Assembly: GCA_951406725.2 (NCBI GenBank)
Contig: OX597819.1
Location: 104,346,001 to 104,410,000, forward strand
Reading direction: 5' to 3'
Source of the DNA: Octopus vulgaris
Lineage: Eukaryota
DNA: 64,000 nt
The notes under the pieces: generated by a model
Database searches by the model: none
What the model was told of the DNA's origin: nothing
The model's input: only the letters and a program-made list of their open reading frames with translations
Program-made: the position numbers and the translations under genes
Shown: one piece after another, positions 23,390 through 44,394 of the stretch
Numbering within the stretch: the first letter of the stretch is position 1
Layout of the letters: every line of letters starts with the position of its first letter

Positions 23390-25175
23390 CAGGTCTTTCC
23401 TTGTGAGGCATTAATAGACAAATGGTTAGTATTGCCGACTCTTGAGAATCCCACATAAAGTTGGCCATGAGAGAAAACTGGTTTCGCAAGGGTCAAACCA
23501 CATGCAAGGACTGACCTTAGGCCTTGCTAATGCTCATTGCAAAGCACAGTTTCAACGGGAATTGTAGGTGCTTGTACTGGAAAGGTATATCCGAGGGAAT
23601 ATTCTAGGAATGGATACAGACTTACCGCTTGCTTTACGAGTCAAAATTGTTGTCTGCATAACTGTTGACATCATCTTTATTATAAGTCGTGTGCAAAGCT
23701 TTGGTGGATCGCAGTTTCGAAGTAGCATAACTGGCGCCCCAATCTTGTGATGCAAGTTGTGAGGTGGGAGGCCGGGTGATGTTAGACTAGTCAAGAATTC
23801 AACTGGATAATTCACAGCTTCATCAATGTTGAGTACAGTGTCAATGGAACTGTAGATGTGACGCTCACCTGGCGAGTGTTCCAGAAGTTTGATGTACAAA
23901 TCATCAACTTCCACATTCTTTGGGGCTAAAATGACACGGGTTTTCATCCAGTTGTGGTTTGTAAACTGATTCCTCAGGGTAGGAAGCACCTTATTCATTA
24001 GTTCCTTTAAATCAGATACCATGTGTCCAAAAGGCAAACTTACCCGGCCATCCTTCCGCCAAACGAAATGCCATCACCGACGTCCAACAGTGACTTTGAA
24101 AAGGTTCTGTCTGCATCATCATCAGCTGCAGTGTCATGTTGATTGTGAGTCTCAGCTTTTGCACACTGCTCCATAGGTAGGACGACTTCATACTGGAATT
24201 TACCTCATCAGCTCTTGTCCCCTTTGGAACCACGAGAAGGGTTTGTTTAAAGTCTGCTGCAAGCAAGACTGTAGCACCTTCAATGAGCCTGTGTTGTGTC
24301 TCAGATCCTGAAGGGCCATGTAAAGAGTTTCAAAGGAAACCTTAAGGCTCATTGGCACCTCGTCTGAGATTATCAACTTGGATTCAACCAGAAGTTTGCC
24401 TTTTATAGTTGGTTCTCTATCAGTTTGTGTTCGTTATCAGCTATATATGCCGTCATTTCCTCGATGTCATAGCTGATTTCTGACAGGTACTCAATTGCGA
24501 GATTGTTTGCTGCCTGCTCCAGTTGAGGCAGACCAAATGTAGCAATGCTTTGACCTCCCATAGCTAGCACTCGGGTGTCCAGGTCAAGTAATGCCTTGTT
24601 ATAAATAGCGTTATTGAACGTGGAAATTTCCGCTGGGGTTTGCCTTTGAATCCTTTGTAGGATGTCCTCTGCCATGCTGCTTTTGTGGGTCGCCCAAACC
24701 TTGAGTCACATGTCATCAACACAACAGAAAATAACTGGCGGACTTGACACGGTACTCTGCTGAGTGCTGCCTCCTCCAGTGTCTGGTCCCAGTGAGCATC
24801 GTTCTCCAGTAGTACATGTTTGGAGCAAACTTCTCTGTAGGTCGTGCAGACTTCCCCATACGTGTATCATGGATAAATTTCCTGGGGAACCGTTTGATGC
24901 AAAAGAAAATGAATGGGTTATTTCTATTGGCTAGGAAGATGAATGGGTTATTTCCTTTGGCTGTTAAAGGAAAATACAAGGGTTATATATGTGGACCCCT
25001 TATAGGGGCTCAAGCCATCCAATTATAGATTTGTATTACACTTTAATGAACCTAGTAACAAAGTGGATGTTACTTTAACATGTTTGCGAAGGTTCACGAA
25101 AATTCGTTAACGGGTGTAGACGGCAACTTTACACAAACAAAAATCCAAACAGACAACTCGCGTTTATATACGTAT
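23390..25175 (-). mobile_element. Internally deleted, decayed Helitron (RepHel PIF1-like helicase plus probable 5' end)
   Basis: Minus-strand peptides TYREVC..LLENDAHWDQTLEEA, ADFKQTLLVVPKGTRADEV..KSSYLW, NYPVEFL.SL..PGLPPHNL..KIGAPVMLLRN.DPPKLC, FAMSISKA*GQSL and FSHGQLYVGFSRV. TATATA.ACGTATATAAACGCGAGTTGTCTGT near 25175 resembles a Helitron 5' terminus. Confidence 0.9.
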
Positions 25176-27677: not shown

Positions 27678-29054
27678 GCTATCGGCCGATTGCAAGCAGG
27701 GCAGCGTGCCCTTGTTGCGAAATCTTACAATGTCCATGTCAGCACCATCTCTCACCTGCAACAGCGATACAGCAACACCAACAGTACTGCAGAGGGCGCC
27801 CTTGGGTTACCACGCCCAGACTGGACTGCTTCATCCGCTTGCAACACTTCCGTTATCGCTTCAGACCGGCCAAAATGAGAGCTCGCGATACCATTGGCAC
27901 TGGACAGCAACCCATCAGCGACAGCACGGTACGACATCGACTGGCCGCCAACAACCTGCGTTGCTGCTTTCCTGCTTGAGGGCTTGACCTCACCGCCTGC
28001 CAGAAACCCCTTTGACAGTTTTCTTCAAATTATGCCAATGTGATCTGTTTGCCCGAACACTGTCGTATGTTGAGGTTCCTGTGTACTATACCTGGACACA
28101 AAATAGATGGAACAGACGCAAGGAAAGAGCACCCCTTGAGGGCTGGGAAGAACATGTTATCTTCGGTGCTATCGGGCGAGTGTACACTGTGCATCCTAAT
28201 CAGCAAGAGTGTTTCTTTTTGCGTCTACTGCTATACAGCACCGACATTGGCGGCATCAACAATGGAGGTCGATAGCCTTCTCTGACGAGAGCCAGTACTG
28301 CGTTTCTCCCTTGAAGTGAGGGTGTGGAGTAAGAGGGGTGAACGCTACAGAGATGCATGTGTTGTGGAGAGAGACGCGTTGGGTGGCTGAAGCATCATGG
28401 TTTGGGGTACTATAGGCTTGAATCAGAGAATTAGGCCTCATACGTTCCAAAATGTTGGTGCAGGCAGAGGGAGTGGCATCACAGCGCAGCGCTTCCTTGA
28501 CCAGATCCTAAGACCTCACATCGTGTCCTTCTTCGCGCATCTTCATAGCCACATGTTCCAACAGGACAATGCTCCCTCCCCCACGGCTAGGGTCACCATG
28601 AACTTACTGTGTCAGCACATCAGAACCAAGCCGTGGCCGGCTCTCAACCCGGATTTGGACTCAATTGAACACACGTGGGATGAAATCCAGAGATGGCTGA
28701 ACCAGGTGGCCCAAGGCCGACAACTCATGTGGAACTGGAGGCAGCTTTCCTCAAGATGTGGGCGCAGGTGCCAATTGCTTTTGTTAACCATCTCATGCAT
28801 TCCATGTACCGACGGTGTATGGCCGTTTTGAACACCCAGGGATGGCGTACACGGTATTGAATATGTCACGCCCTGCAATCTCGATGTGCTGGATCCGCCC
28901 ACTACCAGAACACATGACAACGACCCACAGACTGTGGTCAACGTACATCCAAGAAATTGACTTGATCAGATTGATCAAAATTTACCTCTGACAATGAAAT
29001 CAAAACATATTTCACAGTTACACACGTCTCGCGTTTCTTTTGCGGTGCAGTATA
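27678..29054 (+). mobile_element. Decayed Tc1-family DDE transposon lacking its left end
   Basis: IGRLQAG..VAKSYNVHVSTISHLQQRY (HTH), GRPWVTT, WRSIAFSDES, MVWGTI, FQQDNAP, WPALNPDLDSIEHTWD. The right end CGTTTCTTTTGCGGTGCAGTATA is TIR-like. Confidence 0.92.
28003..28232 (+). pseudogene. Helitron Rep-region fragment embedded in the Tc1 transposase
   Basis: TPLTVFFKLCQCDLFARTLSYVEVPVYYTW..W.RRK..AIGRVYTVHPNQQECFFLRLLL is a conserved Helitron RepHel block. Confidence 0.9.
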
Positions 29055-36356: not shown

Positions 36357-37357
36357 GACAAGACGAAGAGCGCGATGCGAATACAATAGATATTTTATTG
36401 GTTGAACGATGTTTTAACAGCAAGCCTATCTTTGTCGAGCTCAAAATAAAATGTGAAAAAATTCAAAATTATAGAAATTCAAATCTAAAGTATGAACGAG
36501 AGCAACTAGCATCCACACGTTAATGGAATGACATCATCAGTTTTTAAGTTTCAATTTTATAACTGGCGAAAAGAAAAAGACGGAAAAAAGCATGAAAAAA
36601 GGAAAGGAAAAAGAAGAATATTCAATGAAACAGTTTTGTGTAAATTTGATCATATTATCTCCTGTCATTTTATTCATTCCTCCTGAGCGTGATGTTAATA
36701 ACCCGCAAGCATATTTTCTCGTCATGCAATTTGAGTATTGAAAGGGAAGCAGATTCAGAATATTTTCTGAGAATATGCACTTTCAAGCCTTTTCCAAAAT
36801 TGCAGCCGTTTGAAACAAAATATTCGGCAAGTTCTGTCTTACTATAGTTATTGTGCCTGACGTCATATCTGTGCCCATTAAATCTTTTGTTTAATTATTC
36901 TGTTGTACAACCAACATACATGAAGTTGTGTTTCGTGCTTTCTGCCGCGTACACCAAATGGGAATCTCTACATGTCCCACCTTCTGTATAAATCATAACA
37001 TTTCTGTTATGATTCCTGATGGAATTCTCTCAACTCCTGTTGTTGCACAATAAACAAGGCTTACCTCTCTTGCAGCCGTTTTTCCAATGCAGATATCCCA
37101 ATGCTAGTTTTCTTGGAGTCAGAAATAGAGGTCAATTGTTCTCTTATATTCTTATTCCGTCTAAAGTCTACAATAGGCGGCTGAAGAAATATCTGTTTGA
37201 AACGAGAATATTTTCGTGCAACATTCTGGTAACTTTCATGCAACATTTTTGAAATACCAGCGAAATTTCGGTAGCCGTTAATCACTAAAGGAAGTCTGTC
37301 ACACATGGCATTGTGTTTGCTAGAATTATGCGTGGAGGTTTGACTTTCTTTGCTCAT
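36357..37357 (-). mobile_element. Decayed Penelope-like element 3' part: linker, GIY-YIG endonuclease and terminal repeat remnant
   Basis: Minus strand KQIFLQPPIVDFRRNKNIREQL, GCKRGKPCLLCN, HLVYAAESTKHNFMYVGCTTE*LNKRFNGHRYD, LLTSRSGGMN. A CTGATGA hammerhead remnant lies downstream at ~36500-36545. Confidence 0.85.
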
Positions 37358-37690: not shown

Positions 37691-39617
37691 CATTACAAAG
37701 ATCAGTGGGGACAGGCAGTCCCCTTCGAAGATGCCCCTCCTAATTTCTACTGTCCCTAAACTTCTTGTATTTGTCAGGTCTGTCCTCCAGTTCGCCATAC
37801 TTTTTCCAAGCAATCGCTCAACATTCGATGCAATACCCAAATAAGTTCATACACTCCATAAACCAAGAATGTGGGATCATATCGTACACCTTACGATTGT
37901 CGATCCATGACATGGCTAAGTTACTTTTCCTCGTCTCGCAGTCTCTATCAGGAGCTGATCCTTGATCCCTCTGCACGTACGCGTGCAACCATTCTGCTTA
38001 TGTGGCAGGGCTCCATTTTTTTCCAGATGTTCGTACATTGACTCTGCGAGTATTCCAGTCAATAACTTCCATATAAGCGACAAACAGGATATCGGCCTGT
38101 AATTGTCTACCGTATTGCCTTTTGCGATGTTTTTCAAGTACAACACTGTCCCTATCCAATGTCAACCACTCTTGTGTTACTTGGTCGGAATTTAACAAGG
38201 TATTGAGTTGCGCAGCTATTCCTGCATAACATTCACCAGCTCTTTTGATCCAGTAGCGTTGAACTCCATCTGGTCCCGGGGTCTTCCAGCTGCTCATTTT
38301 TTTACTGATTTCCTTCACTTCCCTAACTGAAATGACTAGTTCTACCTGATTTGGACAGTTCTTGCAACCATTCAGCATTCTTCTTGTGCTCCTTGTCTTT
38401 GTTCCAGATGTCATCCCAAGACCTTTGACTTTCAATGTTATATGGTATCAACTTTTCATCAGTACACTCTCCATCTAATTCTTTATAGAATCTCTTCTGA
38501 TCTACTCTGAATAATCTATTCTGGCGGTAACCCTTCATTCTTTGGTCGTATCTTACCATCTTTACATTCTTTGCAATGAGGCGCTGTTTCAGTTCCTCCA
38601 TTGCTACTTTCAAGCCCTTTCTTTCAGCATTATATTTCCTTTTCAGCGCCCCGTATTTTTGTTCGGTTTTAAGCTCCCCTTTCTCTTTTCGGTCAAACAC
38701 AGAGATTTCCTTCGAAAGCATGTCTAACCTTGCCTAGATTCTTCTTTTCCACCATGGATCTTTTCTTTTGTCACCCCCATTTTGTTTCTTTTTCTTGACA
38801 TCAACACCCACATTTTCTGCTACAACAATACTTGCAGCCTTGGTCAAAGTATTTGTTTCTGTGATGTTGTTTGTTCTGATGTATTTCAGAATTTCATTGG
38901 CATTTTTCGTTTCTTGGTTCAATTTCCATCGATCAACCTCTTCAAGTTTGCAAATAATGTCGCTATCGTCCTCCTGTAGTCTTGCCTTTATTCTGTTGTA
39001 GATTGCCTTTTGTTCATCTGTCATGTCGCTATTAGATTTACCGTCTTCTTTTAGATCATTTATATGTCTCTCATTAAGTAAACTACCACTGCTCCTTCCT
39101 GTGCAATGAGATTACTCTTATTAGTAAGAACTGTATTTTCATTCTTATCTATGCTGCTATTGTCCATGACCCGTCTTTTGATAGCTTCGAGCTCTACTTC
39201 TGTGAACCAACATTTTTTTCTTATTGCTCTCGCTTAATCACATAGTCTCTGTTCCGTGAGTTGAAACAATCCCTTTCCTATCCAAGGATGTTACATACGT
39301 TGTCAGTAACCCCTAATTTGAGCACCATTTTCATCTACCGCGCTGCTCAAGTAGTAACACACCATGACCACAGCATTAATTTGCTTGCTCCATCTATGCC
39401 GTGTGTGGTGGTCCCTTTCTGGATATCAACAGGCTGTAGCCGGACCAGAATCTCTGAGCCTACCGTGTGCAACACTGTCACCATCATTGGTTTCAGTTTC
39501 ATTATCACAATTATTCACAATATTTTGTTTTTTCATTGTCACTCATATGAGGTAGCGATTATCAGGTTGCGCAATCACCAGTGTTTTTATTGTGACACCA
39601 TCACAAGATGTATCAAC
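37690..39617 (-). mobile_element. 5' half of a decayed R4/Dong-clade LINE (N-terminal domain to mid-RT)
   Basis: [90 protein letters not shown]. The 5' end abuts (AAT)n on the element strand. Confidence 0.92.
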
Positions 39618-39722
<105 letters not shown>

Positions 39723-39747
39723 CATTATTATCATTATTATTATTATT

Positions 39748-40212
39748 GCAAAATCCTGTGGGATGCAATGATCCAGGGCGATCTCCTCACCAGATATCGG
39801 AAATCAGACATTGTTGTGATTAAAAAACAAAGAACATGCCTAATAATCGACATAGCATGCCTCAGTGACAACAAGGTCAGTGTGACAAAAGAAGAAAATA
39901 TAAACAACTATGACGATTTGAAGCGGGATATACGAAGGTTGTGGTCAATGAGGAGAGTAGGCGTGATACCAATGGTAATTGGTGTACTAGGAACTATCAG
40001 CACTCAACTACCAATATGGCTGAAAAAGATTGGTGCAAGTGCGAAGGTAGAACACCTACAAAAATCAGCATTGCTTGGAACTGCAAGAATTCTTCGCGGG
40101 GTTCTTGAAAACCGACCAGTAAACAAACATCACTTTATCATACCCAGCAAAATAAGCTGTGAATTTTCATTTTACCCCAGTGACTCTTTGATGGCATACA
40201 CTGCAATCTCAA
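39748..40212 (+). pseudogene. 3' end of an R4/Dong-clade LINE
   Basis: KILWD..RKSDIVVI..CLIIDIAC..VIGVLG..LQKSALLGTARILRGVL, then 3' UTR and (AAT)n. Confidence 0.88.
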
Positions 40213-41025
40213 TAATGATAATAATCCTTTCTAGTAAAGGCACAAGGCTTGACATTTTGGCGGAGCGGTATAGTCGATTAAATTGACTCTAGAATAATAA
40301 TAATTACAATAGAAAATTGTTTAATGACGTAGAGATGTGATTCTCAAACTTTTTTTTTTATCAATGACTCCATTTTGACTTTATTAAAAATCAATCTTTC
40401 GTTTACCTTTTCCATTACCTGTATTATTATACAGACCACTCCAGATACACATCAGACCCTGAATTTCGTATAATGTTCTGAACAAGGTGTTACAGCTCCT
40501 TTTGAGGAATGCTTGTGCTTAGGAACGAGAAAAAGCAAAACGGATTCAATGAAAAATATTTTCAAAAGAATTCAGATGAGGATTAAAGAGTAAAATACTG
40601 AAACCAAACATATAAAGGTGAGAGGGAGGAATGGGAATAAATAAATGAAGAAGGGATGTAAAAAGTGAAAGTAGAAGAAATATGGCGATGTAGTATATAG
40701 GTAACTGTGGAGAAATGGATGAAGAAGAATATTCCAGAAGAAACAGAATAATGAGGAGAGGTGAGTTTTTGGTTCTTTGAATGTTTCCATCATTGGACTG
40801 CGGTCATGCTGGAGCACCGGTGGAGACCACCCTCATACCTTTTTTTAATATTTCAGGATTAGAACATAGGAAGAAGTGGAAGAGGGGAGGAAGGAGGGAA
40901 GGCGGAGAAGGAGGTGGAGAAGATGTACAGGAGTAGAGAAGGGGTAAAAAATTATCTTAGAATATCTAATAGGAAACCATTTGAATGCAATAGTAACATC
41001 GTCATTATCATCCTCGTTGTTGTTG

Positions 41026-41130: not shown

Positions 41131-41316
41131 TTAAGGCTGCGAGCTGGAAGAATCGTTAGCGGTATTTCGCCCGTTGCTACGTTCTGAGATCTGTCGAGGT
41201 CGACTTTGCTTTTCATCCTTTCGAGATCGATAAAATAAGTACCAGTGAAATACTGGAGTCGATATAATCGATTATCCTCCCACCCAATTCCAAGCTTTGT
41301 GCCTATAGTAGACATG

Positions 41317-42241: not shown

Positions 42242-42407
42242 TGTTTCTTTATTACCCACAAGGGGCTAAACACAAAGGGGACAAACAAGGACAGACATAT
42301 GGATTAAGTCGATTACATCGACCCCAGTGCGTAACTGGTACTTATTTAATCGACCCCGAAAGGATGAAAGGCAAAGTCGACCTCGGCGGAATTTGAACTC
42401 AGAACGT
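42242..42407 (-). mobile_element. 5'-truncated family A SINE with target-site duplication
   Basis: AAATTATC at 42234-42241 and 42412-42419. Confidence 0.85.
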
Positions 42408-42617: not shown

Positions 42618-42663
<46 letters not shown>

Positions 42664-42665
42664 AT

Positions 42666-42772
42666 ATTTCTTACTGACGAATCTAACGGCCTATGGAAGA
42701 TTGGCTTGATTTAATTTAATCAGGTTAGTTTACCATTAAACAATAGATGAAACGGTGCATCGTATAAGAAAT
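42666..42772 (+). ncRNA. Canonical type I hammerhead ribozyme, copy 1
   Basis: atttctta-CTGACGA-atcta..tagat-GAAA-cggtgcatcg-TA-taagaaat, with an 8-bp stem I and predicted cut after 42764. Confidence 0.92.
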
Positions 42773-43154
42773 TACAGGGTAAATGTTTTTTTTAATTTTC
42801 TCCTGGTTTGCGGAATTAATGTTATTTTGCGGTTGAAGCTTTGGCTGTTATTTCTAGTGGGTGAATGGCCTATTATGGCCGTTCCTTGATTGTGATGTTG
42901 AACTTATAAATGGTCTATGACTATTGAATTTTTTCCCACTAGGCCGCTGGTGGCAAAAAAATTCTACAAAATTTTTTGCCACCCTATATTGATTAATTAT
43001 GAATTTTCTGGTTAATTCCGTAATGGAATCGGCGGCTTATATTTATTTGCTGCCGATAAATTTGGCGCGAGTGCGATGATTTGAAAATTTTAGGTCAGAT
43101 ATTGCCGAGGCAGGGACAGAAGTGCCTCGTGAAAATATCTGTTCCGATTTGGCT

Positions 43155-43261
43155 ATTTCTTACTGACGAATCTAACGGCCTATGGAAGATTGGCTTGATT
43201 TAATTTAATCAGGTTAGTTTACCATTAAACAATAGATGAAACGGTGCATCGTATAAGAAAT
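43155..43261 (+). ncRNA. Canonical type I hammerhead ribozyme, copy 2
   Basis: Same sequence as copy 1; predicted cut after 43253. Confidence 0.92.
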
Positions 43262-43564
43262 TACAGGGTAAATGTTTTTTTTAATTTTCTCCTGGTTTGC
43301 GGAATTAATGTTATTTTGCGGTTGAAGCTTTGGCTGTTATTTCTAGTGGGTGAATGGCCTATTATGGCCGTTCCTTGATTGTGATGTTGAACTTATAAAT
43401 GGTCTATGACTATTGAATTTTTTCCCACTAGGCCGCTGGTGGCAAAAAAATTCTACAAAATTTTTTGCCACCCTATATTGATTAATTATATATATATATA
43501 TATATATATATGAAAAAACAAGTCAAAAATAGAAAATGCTAAGATAATTTTATAGTGAATCTTT

Positions 43565-43602
43565 CAGTACCGGTTTCGGTCATTTTGAGACCTTTTCAAC
43601 TG
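43565..43602 (-). ncRNA. Minimal hammerhead variant with a U3-A8 core, in a small element (~43511-43770) between TA-rich tracts
   Basis: Minus strand cag-TTGAAAA-ggtc-tcaaaat-gacc-GAAA-ccgg-TA-ctg. Confidence 0.8.
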
Positions 43603-44394
43603 TAACGATTAAATAATTAAATTTAGAAAAATTAGAAGAAAAGTTTTTTTAAAAGAATATTTCTATAGTAATGTTCAGATATAAGTAGCATTCTGCCTTT
43701 CTCTGAATCCCTTGTTTGCACTTGTGTGTTCGAGGTCGTTGTGAGTTCTTGGTAGGGTAGGTGAAGAATAATATATATGTATATATGCATGTAATGTATA
43801 TATAATCGACATCATGAACACACTGCTACAACACTGTCTACGCATCTTGAGAAGTGCTAAAACAAGAACATCGCCATCACCAACACAACCACTACTTTCA
43901 AAATAAAAACATTTCCTCTTTCTCCTATTCTTCGCCTCCTCCTTGCCCTACTTCTCTCACACTTCGTCCTCCTCCTTGACCTCCTGCTCCTACTCTCCGC
44001 CCTCCTCCTTGCCATCTTCCACCTCTTTCTACTACTACTACTACTACGAAAAGAGTAAATGGTGGAAGGAATGTATCTAGTGTATCCCAAATTGATGCTT
44101 CTCCAGATGAATGACCGCTGTCATTAAACCGCTCGAGCACATCAGAAGTGATTGCTCGGTGGCATGAAGGCAGGCAGTGGCAAGACTGAGACGACAACTG
44201 CTGACGCTAGGACGGATAAGTTACGCTTCGGAATCTTGTACGGATTGGTCACGTATGCAAAGGAAGAAACTCCGGTTTGTGCTGCCGGTTTGTGAGTCCA
44301 AAGTAAGAGGGGAAAGAGAATTAGTGAATGAATAATTTGTGACTGAACGGGAATCGAAGCTGTGACATAGACTTTCATCTTTTACCGTTTGCAT

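Follow-up and report, generated by a model that had tools for sequence, protein, structure and literature searches.

A young hammerhead-bearing repeat family of Octopus vulgaris, probably pasted into TA microsatellites by a Penelope-type enzyme

The 489-nt hammerhead-bearing unit described here belongs to a young repeat family of Octopus vulgaris that was probably pasted into (TA)n microsatellites by the reverse transcriptase (RT)-endonuclease of a Penelope-like element (PLE), with unit-length and probably circular RNA as the template and with two start sites on it. The parts of this reading differ in strength. Our data argue strongly that the element is a retrozyme moved by PLE machinery, and two primings on the RNA are likely; a circular monomer as the template is about as well supported as it is doubted. 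The element is young and non-coding, and judging from its sequence it is likely an animal non-LTR retrozyme. It behaves as a non-autonomous Penelope dependant would, and the features of an animal non-LTR retrozyme that can be looked for in a sequence were all found, with self-cleavage and circular RNA as predictions.

The starting point was one copy in the window, a 64,000-nt stretch of DNA that lies on C6 of the 2.8-Gb assembly. An earlier note on the window had called this copy an apparently very young retrozyme-like element, and had considered it the best candidate in the window for a currently active viroid-like circular RNA replicon. The former description agrees with our results, as the family is a dispersed retroelement with many copies that was moved in trans. 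The retrozyme class also stands, in the form of the animal non-LTR type with Penelope-type insertions; an element flanked by LTRs it is not.

Structure of the element in the window

As the earlier note had stated, the copy consists of two 336-bp repeats without a single mismatch around a 153-bp spacer, with TA flanks and no open reading frame (Table 1). The two cut sites that it had predicted were confirmed in position and lie one 489-nt period apart. The (TA)n runs extend from 42621 to 42667 on the left and from 43487 to 43511 on the right. The longest stop-free frame in the element has 60 codons and the longest ATG-initiated frame encodes 32 aa, also when the unit is read as a circle. Unit positions (m) are numbered from the base after the predicted cut (m1 = 42765). 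On this scale the insertion contains unit positions 390-489, then one full unit, and then positions 1-236. The tandem is thus 1.69 units long, and its overlap accounts for the 336-bp repeats, which are not LTRs. Their identity is ordinary, since the divergence of approximately 0.6% within loci leaves zero differences about 13% of the time. The copy is one of 18 single-armed loci; its 3′ end lies at site B (unit position 236), and no end is found at site A. Release of the unit from this copy would need a promoter or transcription start upstream of 42666. An unrelated high-copy repeat (43532-43783) is located immediately to the right of the element.

Table 1. Features of the element and its target in the window.
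Feature	Position	Strand	Basis
(TA)n microsatellite, left part of the insertion target	42621..42664	.	sequence
Whole insertion: single-armed, 5′-truncated partial tandem of 1.69 units (locus L070)	42665..43489	+	
First 336-bp repeat: pseudo-LTR, overlap of the partial tandem	42665..43000	+	
Type I hammerhead motif 1; predicted cut after 42764 (GUA)	42666..42772	+	motif, fold
Cut-to-cut unit, 489 nt, 36.6% GC	42765..43253	+	predicted cuts
153-bp part of the unit, occurring once in this copy	43001..43153	+	
Second 336-bp repeat, identical to the first	43154..43489	+	
Type I hammerhead motif 2; predicted cut after 43253	43155..43261	+	motif, fold
3′-end site A with predicted hairpin; 43385 in the window, also 42896; unit position ~132	43352..43385	+	
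104-nt "tail" between sites A and B; 12-bp predicted hairpin at 43438-43472	43386..43489	+	
(TA)n microsatellite, right part of the target	43490..43511	.	sequence

Hammerhead motif and predicted fold

Both motifs contain CUGACGA (at 42674 and 43163) and a GAAA...GUA segment that ends at 42764 and 43253, respectively. Helix I has 8 Watson-Crick pairs, helix II is a 5-bp base within a 68-nt insert, and helix III stacks C-G, G-C and G-U pairs on A15.1-U16.1 below a UGCA loop. The closing pair of helix II is A-U; helix II of hammerheads is usually closed by G-C. The motif had been described as a fully canonical hammerhead, which overstates it in view of the closing pair, the Rfam comparison and the predicted fold. 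At the gathering level Rfam matched nothing in the whole window, and at E<=10 its 22 sub-threshold matches around the element include no hammerhead on it. In six sequence contexts the hammerhead fold lay 3.1-4.8 kcal/mol above the ensemble and was never the predicted ground state, and within a single motif helix III had a predicted pairing probability of at most 0.05. For two copies, the helix III duplex was predicted at -17.5 kcal/mol, in line with animal hammerheads, for which dimeric cleavage has been described (PMC4209133).

In contigs of runs X1, X4 and X8 the cut-site base is C and the triplet GUC rather than GUA; related copies thus carry the commoner cleavage triplet.

Copy number, age and dispersal of the family

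A genome search with the unit returned 1147 first-look candidates; the 40 that were scored hold full units that are 96-100% identical, in arrays that reach 14 units. The exact 24-nt cut-site word is present in 843 copies genome-wide, and exact junctions of site A and site B with TA number 420 and 750, respectively, all with reversed controls of 0. The cut-site count, together with the cores that are intact in nearly all full units (see below), shows that the motif exceeds chance. The family occupies many hundreds of TA-microsatellite sites. Divergence between loci is 1.81%, and the nearest relatives of the window's unit differ from it by 3 substitutions. This low divergence together with the hundreds of junctions indicates that the family is young and is no local duplication. 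A single-locus assembly duplication, which the earlier note had named among the findings that would overturn its reading, is excluded by the dispersed copies and the exact-word counts, and the survey of copy number and permutation that it had proposed yielded hundreds of sites, long arrays and variable 5′ ends.

The analyses below are based on 69 distinct loci, 40 from the first unit search and 29 new ones from two short-query searches. The short-query set comprised 60 loci; overlaps were dropped, L138 was merged with L140 and L175 with L176, and 21 matches without a locus were left out. The sample is biased towards full units and towards copies near the window's sequence. A full cut-to-cut unit was found in 47 of the 69 loci, in a sample that favors such loci, and nothing singles out the window's copy as the active source. 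Joins between units are clean: the end word is the same in 97 of 100 units, and the start word in 95 of 100. The 5′ boundary is unfixed, so the element has no true LTR.

The stretch is contained in 20 rows from 8 studies with four organism labels, and no run is on record as RNA. Contigs of runs X1, X4, X8 and X14, for which an RNA origin is a guess, extend over the unit and connect its end with its start, a join that looks the same for a circle and a tandem. The unique flank is mostly uncovered in X1 and X4, and is covered throughout in X15 and in most bins in X16. The depth of the element exceeds that of the neighboring repeat in X1 but not in X4, and is unusable as a measure of expression or copy number. 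Inspection by eye of X4, X8 and X14 contigs (loose ends at 42771, 42787, 42842 and 43083) revealed clusters of A-to-G differences that include the ribozyme core. These clusters resemble hyper-editing of double-stranded RNA, the kind of RNA that two-armed copies would give if transcribed, although none of the runs is recorded as RNA.

Two fixed 3′ ends and variable 5′ ends

The 69 loci provided 120 outer 3′ ends, and these were almost entirely confined to two sites: site A accounts for 60 (m123-147, mode 132) and site B for 56 (m231-241, mode 236), which leaves 4 at other positions. Almost every end enters (TA)n at an AT or TA of the unit, and a predicted hairpin precedes each site. Two arms are present in 51 loci, where they lie back to back with their 3′ ends outward. 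In 47 of these loci one arm ends at A and the other at B; one locus is A+A (L176), none is B+B, and three have an irregular end. A separate test based on junction coordinates (64 A and 100 B junctions listed; C1 and C2 to 200 Mb) gave the same result, as all 22 outward pairs within 10 kb were A+B. Contigs of X15 and X16 leave the unit at 43385 into TA (11 and 7 contigs, respectively). The A and B ends, one per arm, the TA target and the partial tandems together form the footprint that is known as the Penelope "tail".

The genome-wide excess of exact B over exact A junctions (750 versus 420) is not explained by the pair rule alone, and could stem from a wider scatter of A ends, from variation among subfamilies or from a larger number of single-armed copies that end at B.

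In terms of the 5′ ends, no preferred position was apparent. The earlier note had observed that the repeat begins almost exactly at the hammerhead, and it does start one base before the motif; however, only 2 of 119 mapped 5′ ends lie at this point (unit positions 390-391), and the start is a chance 5′ truncation. A pile-up of 5′ ends at the cut was rejected, with 0 of 119 exactly there and 6 within 10 nt compared to 4.9 expected. A cluster at unit positions 288-308 (12 of 119) was lost after scan correction (p 0.43).

Variation within and between arrays

The divergence was 0.67% between the arms of a locus and 0.63% within arms, compared to the 1.81% between loci. In a comparison with n=30, within-arm and between-arm divergence were 0.53% and 0.69%; the two values rise and fall together (rho 0.69), with the former slightly the lower (Wilcoxon p 0.056). 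In 27 of 39 informative loci the two arms do not differ at any shared polymorphic site, compared to 10% in shuffles; both arms come from one template lineage. A variant that recurs in at least 4 loci is usually carried by every covering unit of a locus (131 of 142 cases), while single-locus variants are segregating in 130 of 140. No pair of loci shares two segregating variants, and coincidences numbered 21, against 15 (9-21) by chance. Altogether, 33 arrays carry 21 array-wide haplotypes. Each insertion appears to start from one unit sequence that was multiplied at or soon after insertion. These clonal arrays, and the lack of a 5′ pile-up at the cut, favor a unit-length, probably circular template.

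The same PLE enzyme could instead have copied an uncut linear transcript that reads through the cut sites, with the hammerhead as a passenger and with arrays that grow and become homogenized later in the DNA through unequal exchange or conversion. We consider this unlikely. The PLE enzyme of the anole mainly used uncut RNA in vitro, and insertion did not require hammerhead cleavage (PMC11167929). In Xenopus, only 1 of 9 predicted dimers was cleaved in vitro and the other 8 were not, and the authors propose local tandem amplification (Li, Clavereau and Pollet 2026, 10.64898/2026.07.22.740005). A read-through template also predicts 5′ ends that are indifferent to the cut site, as found here. Furthermore, long arrays hold variants that are common to subsets of their units: shared and singleton variants stand at 16/34 in arrays of more than 5 units and at 10/37 in shorter ones, which indicates that DNA-level exchange or expansion, or polishing artefacts, also act. 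Mixed states at one or more of 18 shared sites were seen in 20 of 64 loci, mostly near homopolymers or ends, and L036 mixes two haplotypes. On the other hand, copying of several units at once should pass on unit-specific variants, and no two loci share two segregating ones. The approximately 21 haplotypes are each fixed through whole arrays and through both inverted arms, and several arrays of 3-6 units (L035, L037, L047 and L069) contain singletons only. Both core motifs are also intact in 99 of 100 full units (38 loci), although the family is young.

A cut but linear 489-nt monomer that is re-copied by jumps from its 5′ end back to its 3′ end would impose the same monomer bottleneck and would need no ligase. 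This template is improbable. None of the 119 5′ ends lies at the cut, and template jumps usually leave small indels, while the unit junctions of this family are clean.

Inverted arms

Among the 14 short two-armed loci, the arms overlap on the unit in 13, and L1-style twin priming, which gives non-overlapping arms, does not fit. In 4 of the 14, neither arm can be a copy of the other: the arms of L161 have no base in common, and in L127, L170 and L179 at least 100 nt are private to each arm. Since neither arm contains the other in these loci, each arm was copied from the template rather than from its partner. An overlap of 1-4 nt is present at the inversion point in 34 of 51 loci, a count without a chance control.

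These observations bear on whether the inverted arm could arise by fold-back self-priming of one product, so that a single priming on the RNA would suffice and the short end would be produced by endonuclease resolution. Palindromes at inverted PLE junctions have suggested such a route (PMC3846280), and the tail has been attributed to resolution (PMC8557442). The 5′ ends of the two arms are within 12 nt of each other on the unit in 9 of 51 pairs, compared to 2.9 in permutations (p 0.002), as would be expected from folding back. However, the four loci with private arm sequence argue against it, the longer arm can be either of the two, and nearby 5′ ends could also result from annealing across the unit's own hairpins, as in L149, where the arms join through the helix III palindrome. 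As the general route, fold-back is quite improbable; it may hold for a subset of insertions.

The viroid-like circle of the earlier note, replicating from RNA to RNA, found no support and is very improbable. The predicted 489-nt circle folds strongly (-141 kcal/mol, z -4.1 versus 60 dinucleotide shuffles), and RNA-RNA replication has been raised as one possible cause of the heterogeneity of mussel circles (PMC7229834). Against this, the predicted fold is branched with 60% of the bases paired, scanning of the window revealed no minus-strand hammerhead, so that the ribozyme in both polarities of a hammerhead viroid or satellite replicon is missing there, and the variation and spread of the copies are explained by DNA copies and retrotransposition, with reverse transcription into DNA. 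The last alternative, in which the 336-bp repeats are the LTRs of an LTR-type retrozyme or the product of a local duplication in the assembly, could draw on the two identical direct repeats, and is refuted by the copy survey, with its 5′ boundary in 2 of 119 cases only, tandem arrays at hundreds of sites, a type I hammerhead, and contigs of other runs that join the end of the unit to its start.

Proposed mechanism

The reading that we prefer, in which a PLE enzyme copies unit-length RNA from two start sites, would proceed as follows. A transcript would be cut at one hammerhead after another, probably in dimeric form by way of the near-palindromic helix III, and the cut monomer would be ligated to a circle. 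The PLE enzyme would nick both strands of a TA microsatellite, and AT/TA microhomology would let one nick prime at site A and the other at site B. Each cDNA would run for part of a turn up to many turns, and the two cDNA ends would then join via short overlaps. In the window's copy, only the B-primed arm would have been fixed, after 1.69 turns. A ligated monomer circle would account for the clonal arrays, both arms and the read-through of the cut, all in one step. In its most specific form, in which the PLE RT grips a single 489-nt circle at two sites 104 nt apart and performs rolling-circle, target-primed copying from both nicked TA strands, the model is tentative and somewhat more open to doubt than to belief.

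Comparison with known systems

The animal non-LTR retrozymes of coral, mussel and axolotl (PMC7229834) resemble the 489-nt family in their tandem units with one type I hammerhead each, a GC content below 45%, the lack of an ORF and of LTRs, dispersed copies and co-occurring PLEs. The 489-nt unit exceeds the circles of 170-400 nt described there and lies inside the range of 51-972 bp in 10.64898/2026.07.22.740005. Cleavage and circles were demonstrated for the animal retrozymes (PMC7229834), whereas for the octopus family they are predicted from sequence. Two fixed 3′ ends, the one-of-each rule, TA targeting and clonal arrays are not described in the accessible text of either PMC7229834 or 10.64898/2026.07.22.740005.

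Endonuclease-bearing PLEs also insert as partial tandems with pseudo-LTRs, often with an inverted, 5′-truncated arm (PMC11167929, PMC8557442, PMC3846280, PMC4209133) and with a tail at a single end (PMC8557442, PMC3846280), and they likewise have internal 3′ ends downstream of the hammerhead and (TA)n targets (PMC11167929, PMC8557442). A purified PLE enzyme was shown to cut both strands, to extend them and to begin copying from two internal positions, both downstream of the hammerhead, which bound the tail (Frangieh 2024, PMC11167929). The 489-nt family differs from these PLEs in having no ORF, a tail of 104 nt as opposed to 30-40, and arrays of up to 14 units. In addition, its ends lie at AT/TA microhomology, while the start sites of the anole enzyme are not homologous to the cut DNA (PMC11167929).

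Non-autonomous Chlamys elements, e.g. MRC1, are similarly protein-free PLE dependants with pseudo-LTRs and multicopy head-to-tail insertions in microsatellites (PMC8557442). In contrast to the octopus family, they are green algal and generally share 3′ sequence with autonomous families, and hammerheads are missing from most Chlamys (PMC8557442). In plant LTR retrozymes and hammerhead viroids, as here, two hammerheads would release a unit-length RNA that can be circularized (PMC4918200, PMC9695139). However, the plant retrozymes have type III hammerheads, true LTRs with PBS and PPT, a 4-bp TSD and Gypsy helpers, and hammerhead viroids replicate from RNA to RNA (PMC4918200, PMC9695139). A plant-type LTR retrozyme was rejected for the 489-nt family, given the type I topology and the repeats that are tandem overlaps; a TA target would hide any TSD.

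The return of retrozymes to DNA via a PLE enzyme with a circular template has been a hypothesis since 2020, and the ligated monomer circle was proposed as the template without direct evidence (Cervera and de la Pena 2020, PMC7229834). Earlier support came from co-occurrence and the kinship of pseudo-LTRs. The 489-nt family adds scars of the mechanism itself, namely a nearly strict one-of-each rule for the priming sites and arrays that were uniform at birth, and it predicts exact start sites at 42896 and 43000. It also bears on the inversion and the one-end tails of PLE insertions. If two-site twin priming on a circle is true, every insertion would preserve a circular RNA in genomic form, and Penelope elements in general would owe their inverted arms and one-sided tails to such priming. 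Elements of this class, their link to PLEs and the two start sites have each been published; the combination was not found, and neither was a one-of-each rule or clonal-array test for a retrozyme, in the main texts of open-licence PMC articles and bioRxiv preprints.

Penelope-like elements in the octopus genome

An autonomous PLE family that encodes a 765-aa RT + GIY-YIG protein is present in the same genome. Its 781-codon frame is uninterrupted in 15 of 20 loci, a set chosen for long frames, and the many open-frame copies are 95-100% identical. This family targets TA and has two 3′ ends that are 40 nt apart, and both inverted copies that were seen (L106 and L108) pair one of each. No match to the protein was found among solved structures.

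In L101-L115 and L120 (e.g. L114:289-5510), a 479-codon frame overlaps the 781-codon RT + GIY-YIG frame, and the CxxC-type linker of this young PLE family is presumably Neptune-like. A hammerhead-like motif with a U3-A8 type core, noticed by eye, may sit approximately 50 nt before the first 3′ end, and the predicted fold backs it only partly. A second PLE family (L116:4999-5045) carries a hammerhead-like motif some 130 nt ahead of its 3′ end, in which the core is the variant CCGAAGA and helix III is palindromic; helices I and II of the motif form in the predicted fold.

No PLE that shares sequence with the 489-nt unit was found in 95 PLE-bearing loci (L071-L120 and L181-L225); the one exception in these loci is a separate 53-bp insertion in L073 that matches the unit. 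In the GIY-YIG search, 150 of 6136 candidates were scored, and Hydra- and Poseidon-type families fall outside it. No partner emerged from 20 longer regions, from the window's GIY-YIG piece and its RT, or from the two short-query searches. The tail lengths also differ, at 40 nt in the intact PLE family compared to 104 nt in the 489-nt family. We infer the partner PLE by class and not as a particular family.

The window itself contains, on the minus strand at 36670-37300, a decayed GIY-YIG fragment of an old PLE family, and the 150 scored relatives of this fragment are 61-79% identical and have no long open frame.

Other repeats in the window and the genome

A second, older hammerhead repeat family with a unit of ~541 bp occupies positions 1-612 of the window and continues upstream (L226:5084-6115), with its motif at 308-355. 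The search for it returned 2705 candidates, with 93-97% identity among the best copies. Its footprint is as in the 489-nt family: one arm is inverted, and two 3′ ends, separated by roughly 95 nt, run into (TA)n. Its sequence does not match the 489-nt unit, and no PLE was found attached to it.

More hammerhead repeats lie in TA runs beside PLE ends at L079:60-560, at L109:1200-1700 and in the left flanks of L057 and L062, and the one in L079 is two-armed. In L057, inspection by eye showed tail-like sequence of the L079 type running straight into the 5′ end of the 489-nt family, a join that is suggestive of template switching between two retrozyme families.

Two further groups of repeats were observed in the window. 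An 82-nt repeat forms an inverted pair at 41190-41271 and 42309-42390; its two copies, with 85% complementarity, probably belong to a short interspersed element. Broken frames are present at 37998-40286 (+), 23552-24073 (-) and 28391-28831 (+), which we take to resemble a non-LTR retrotransposon, a Helitron-type helicase and a Tc1-type transposase, respectively.
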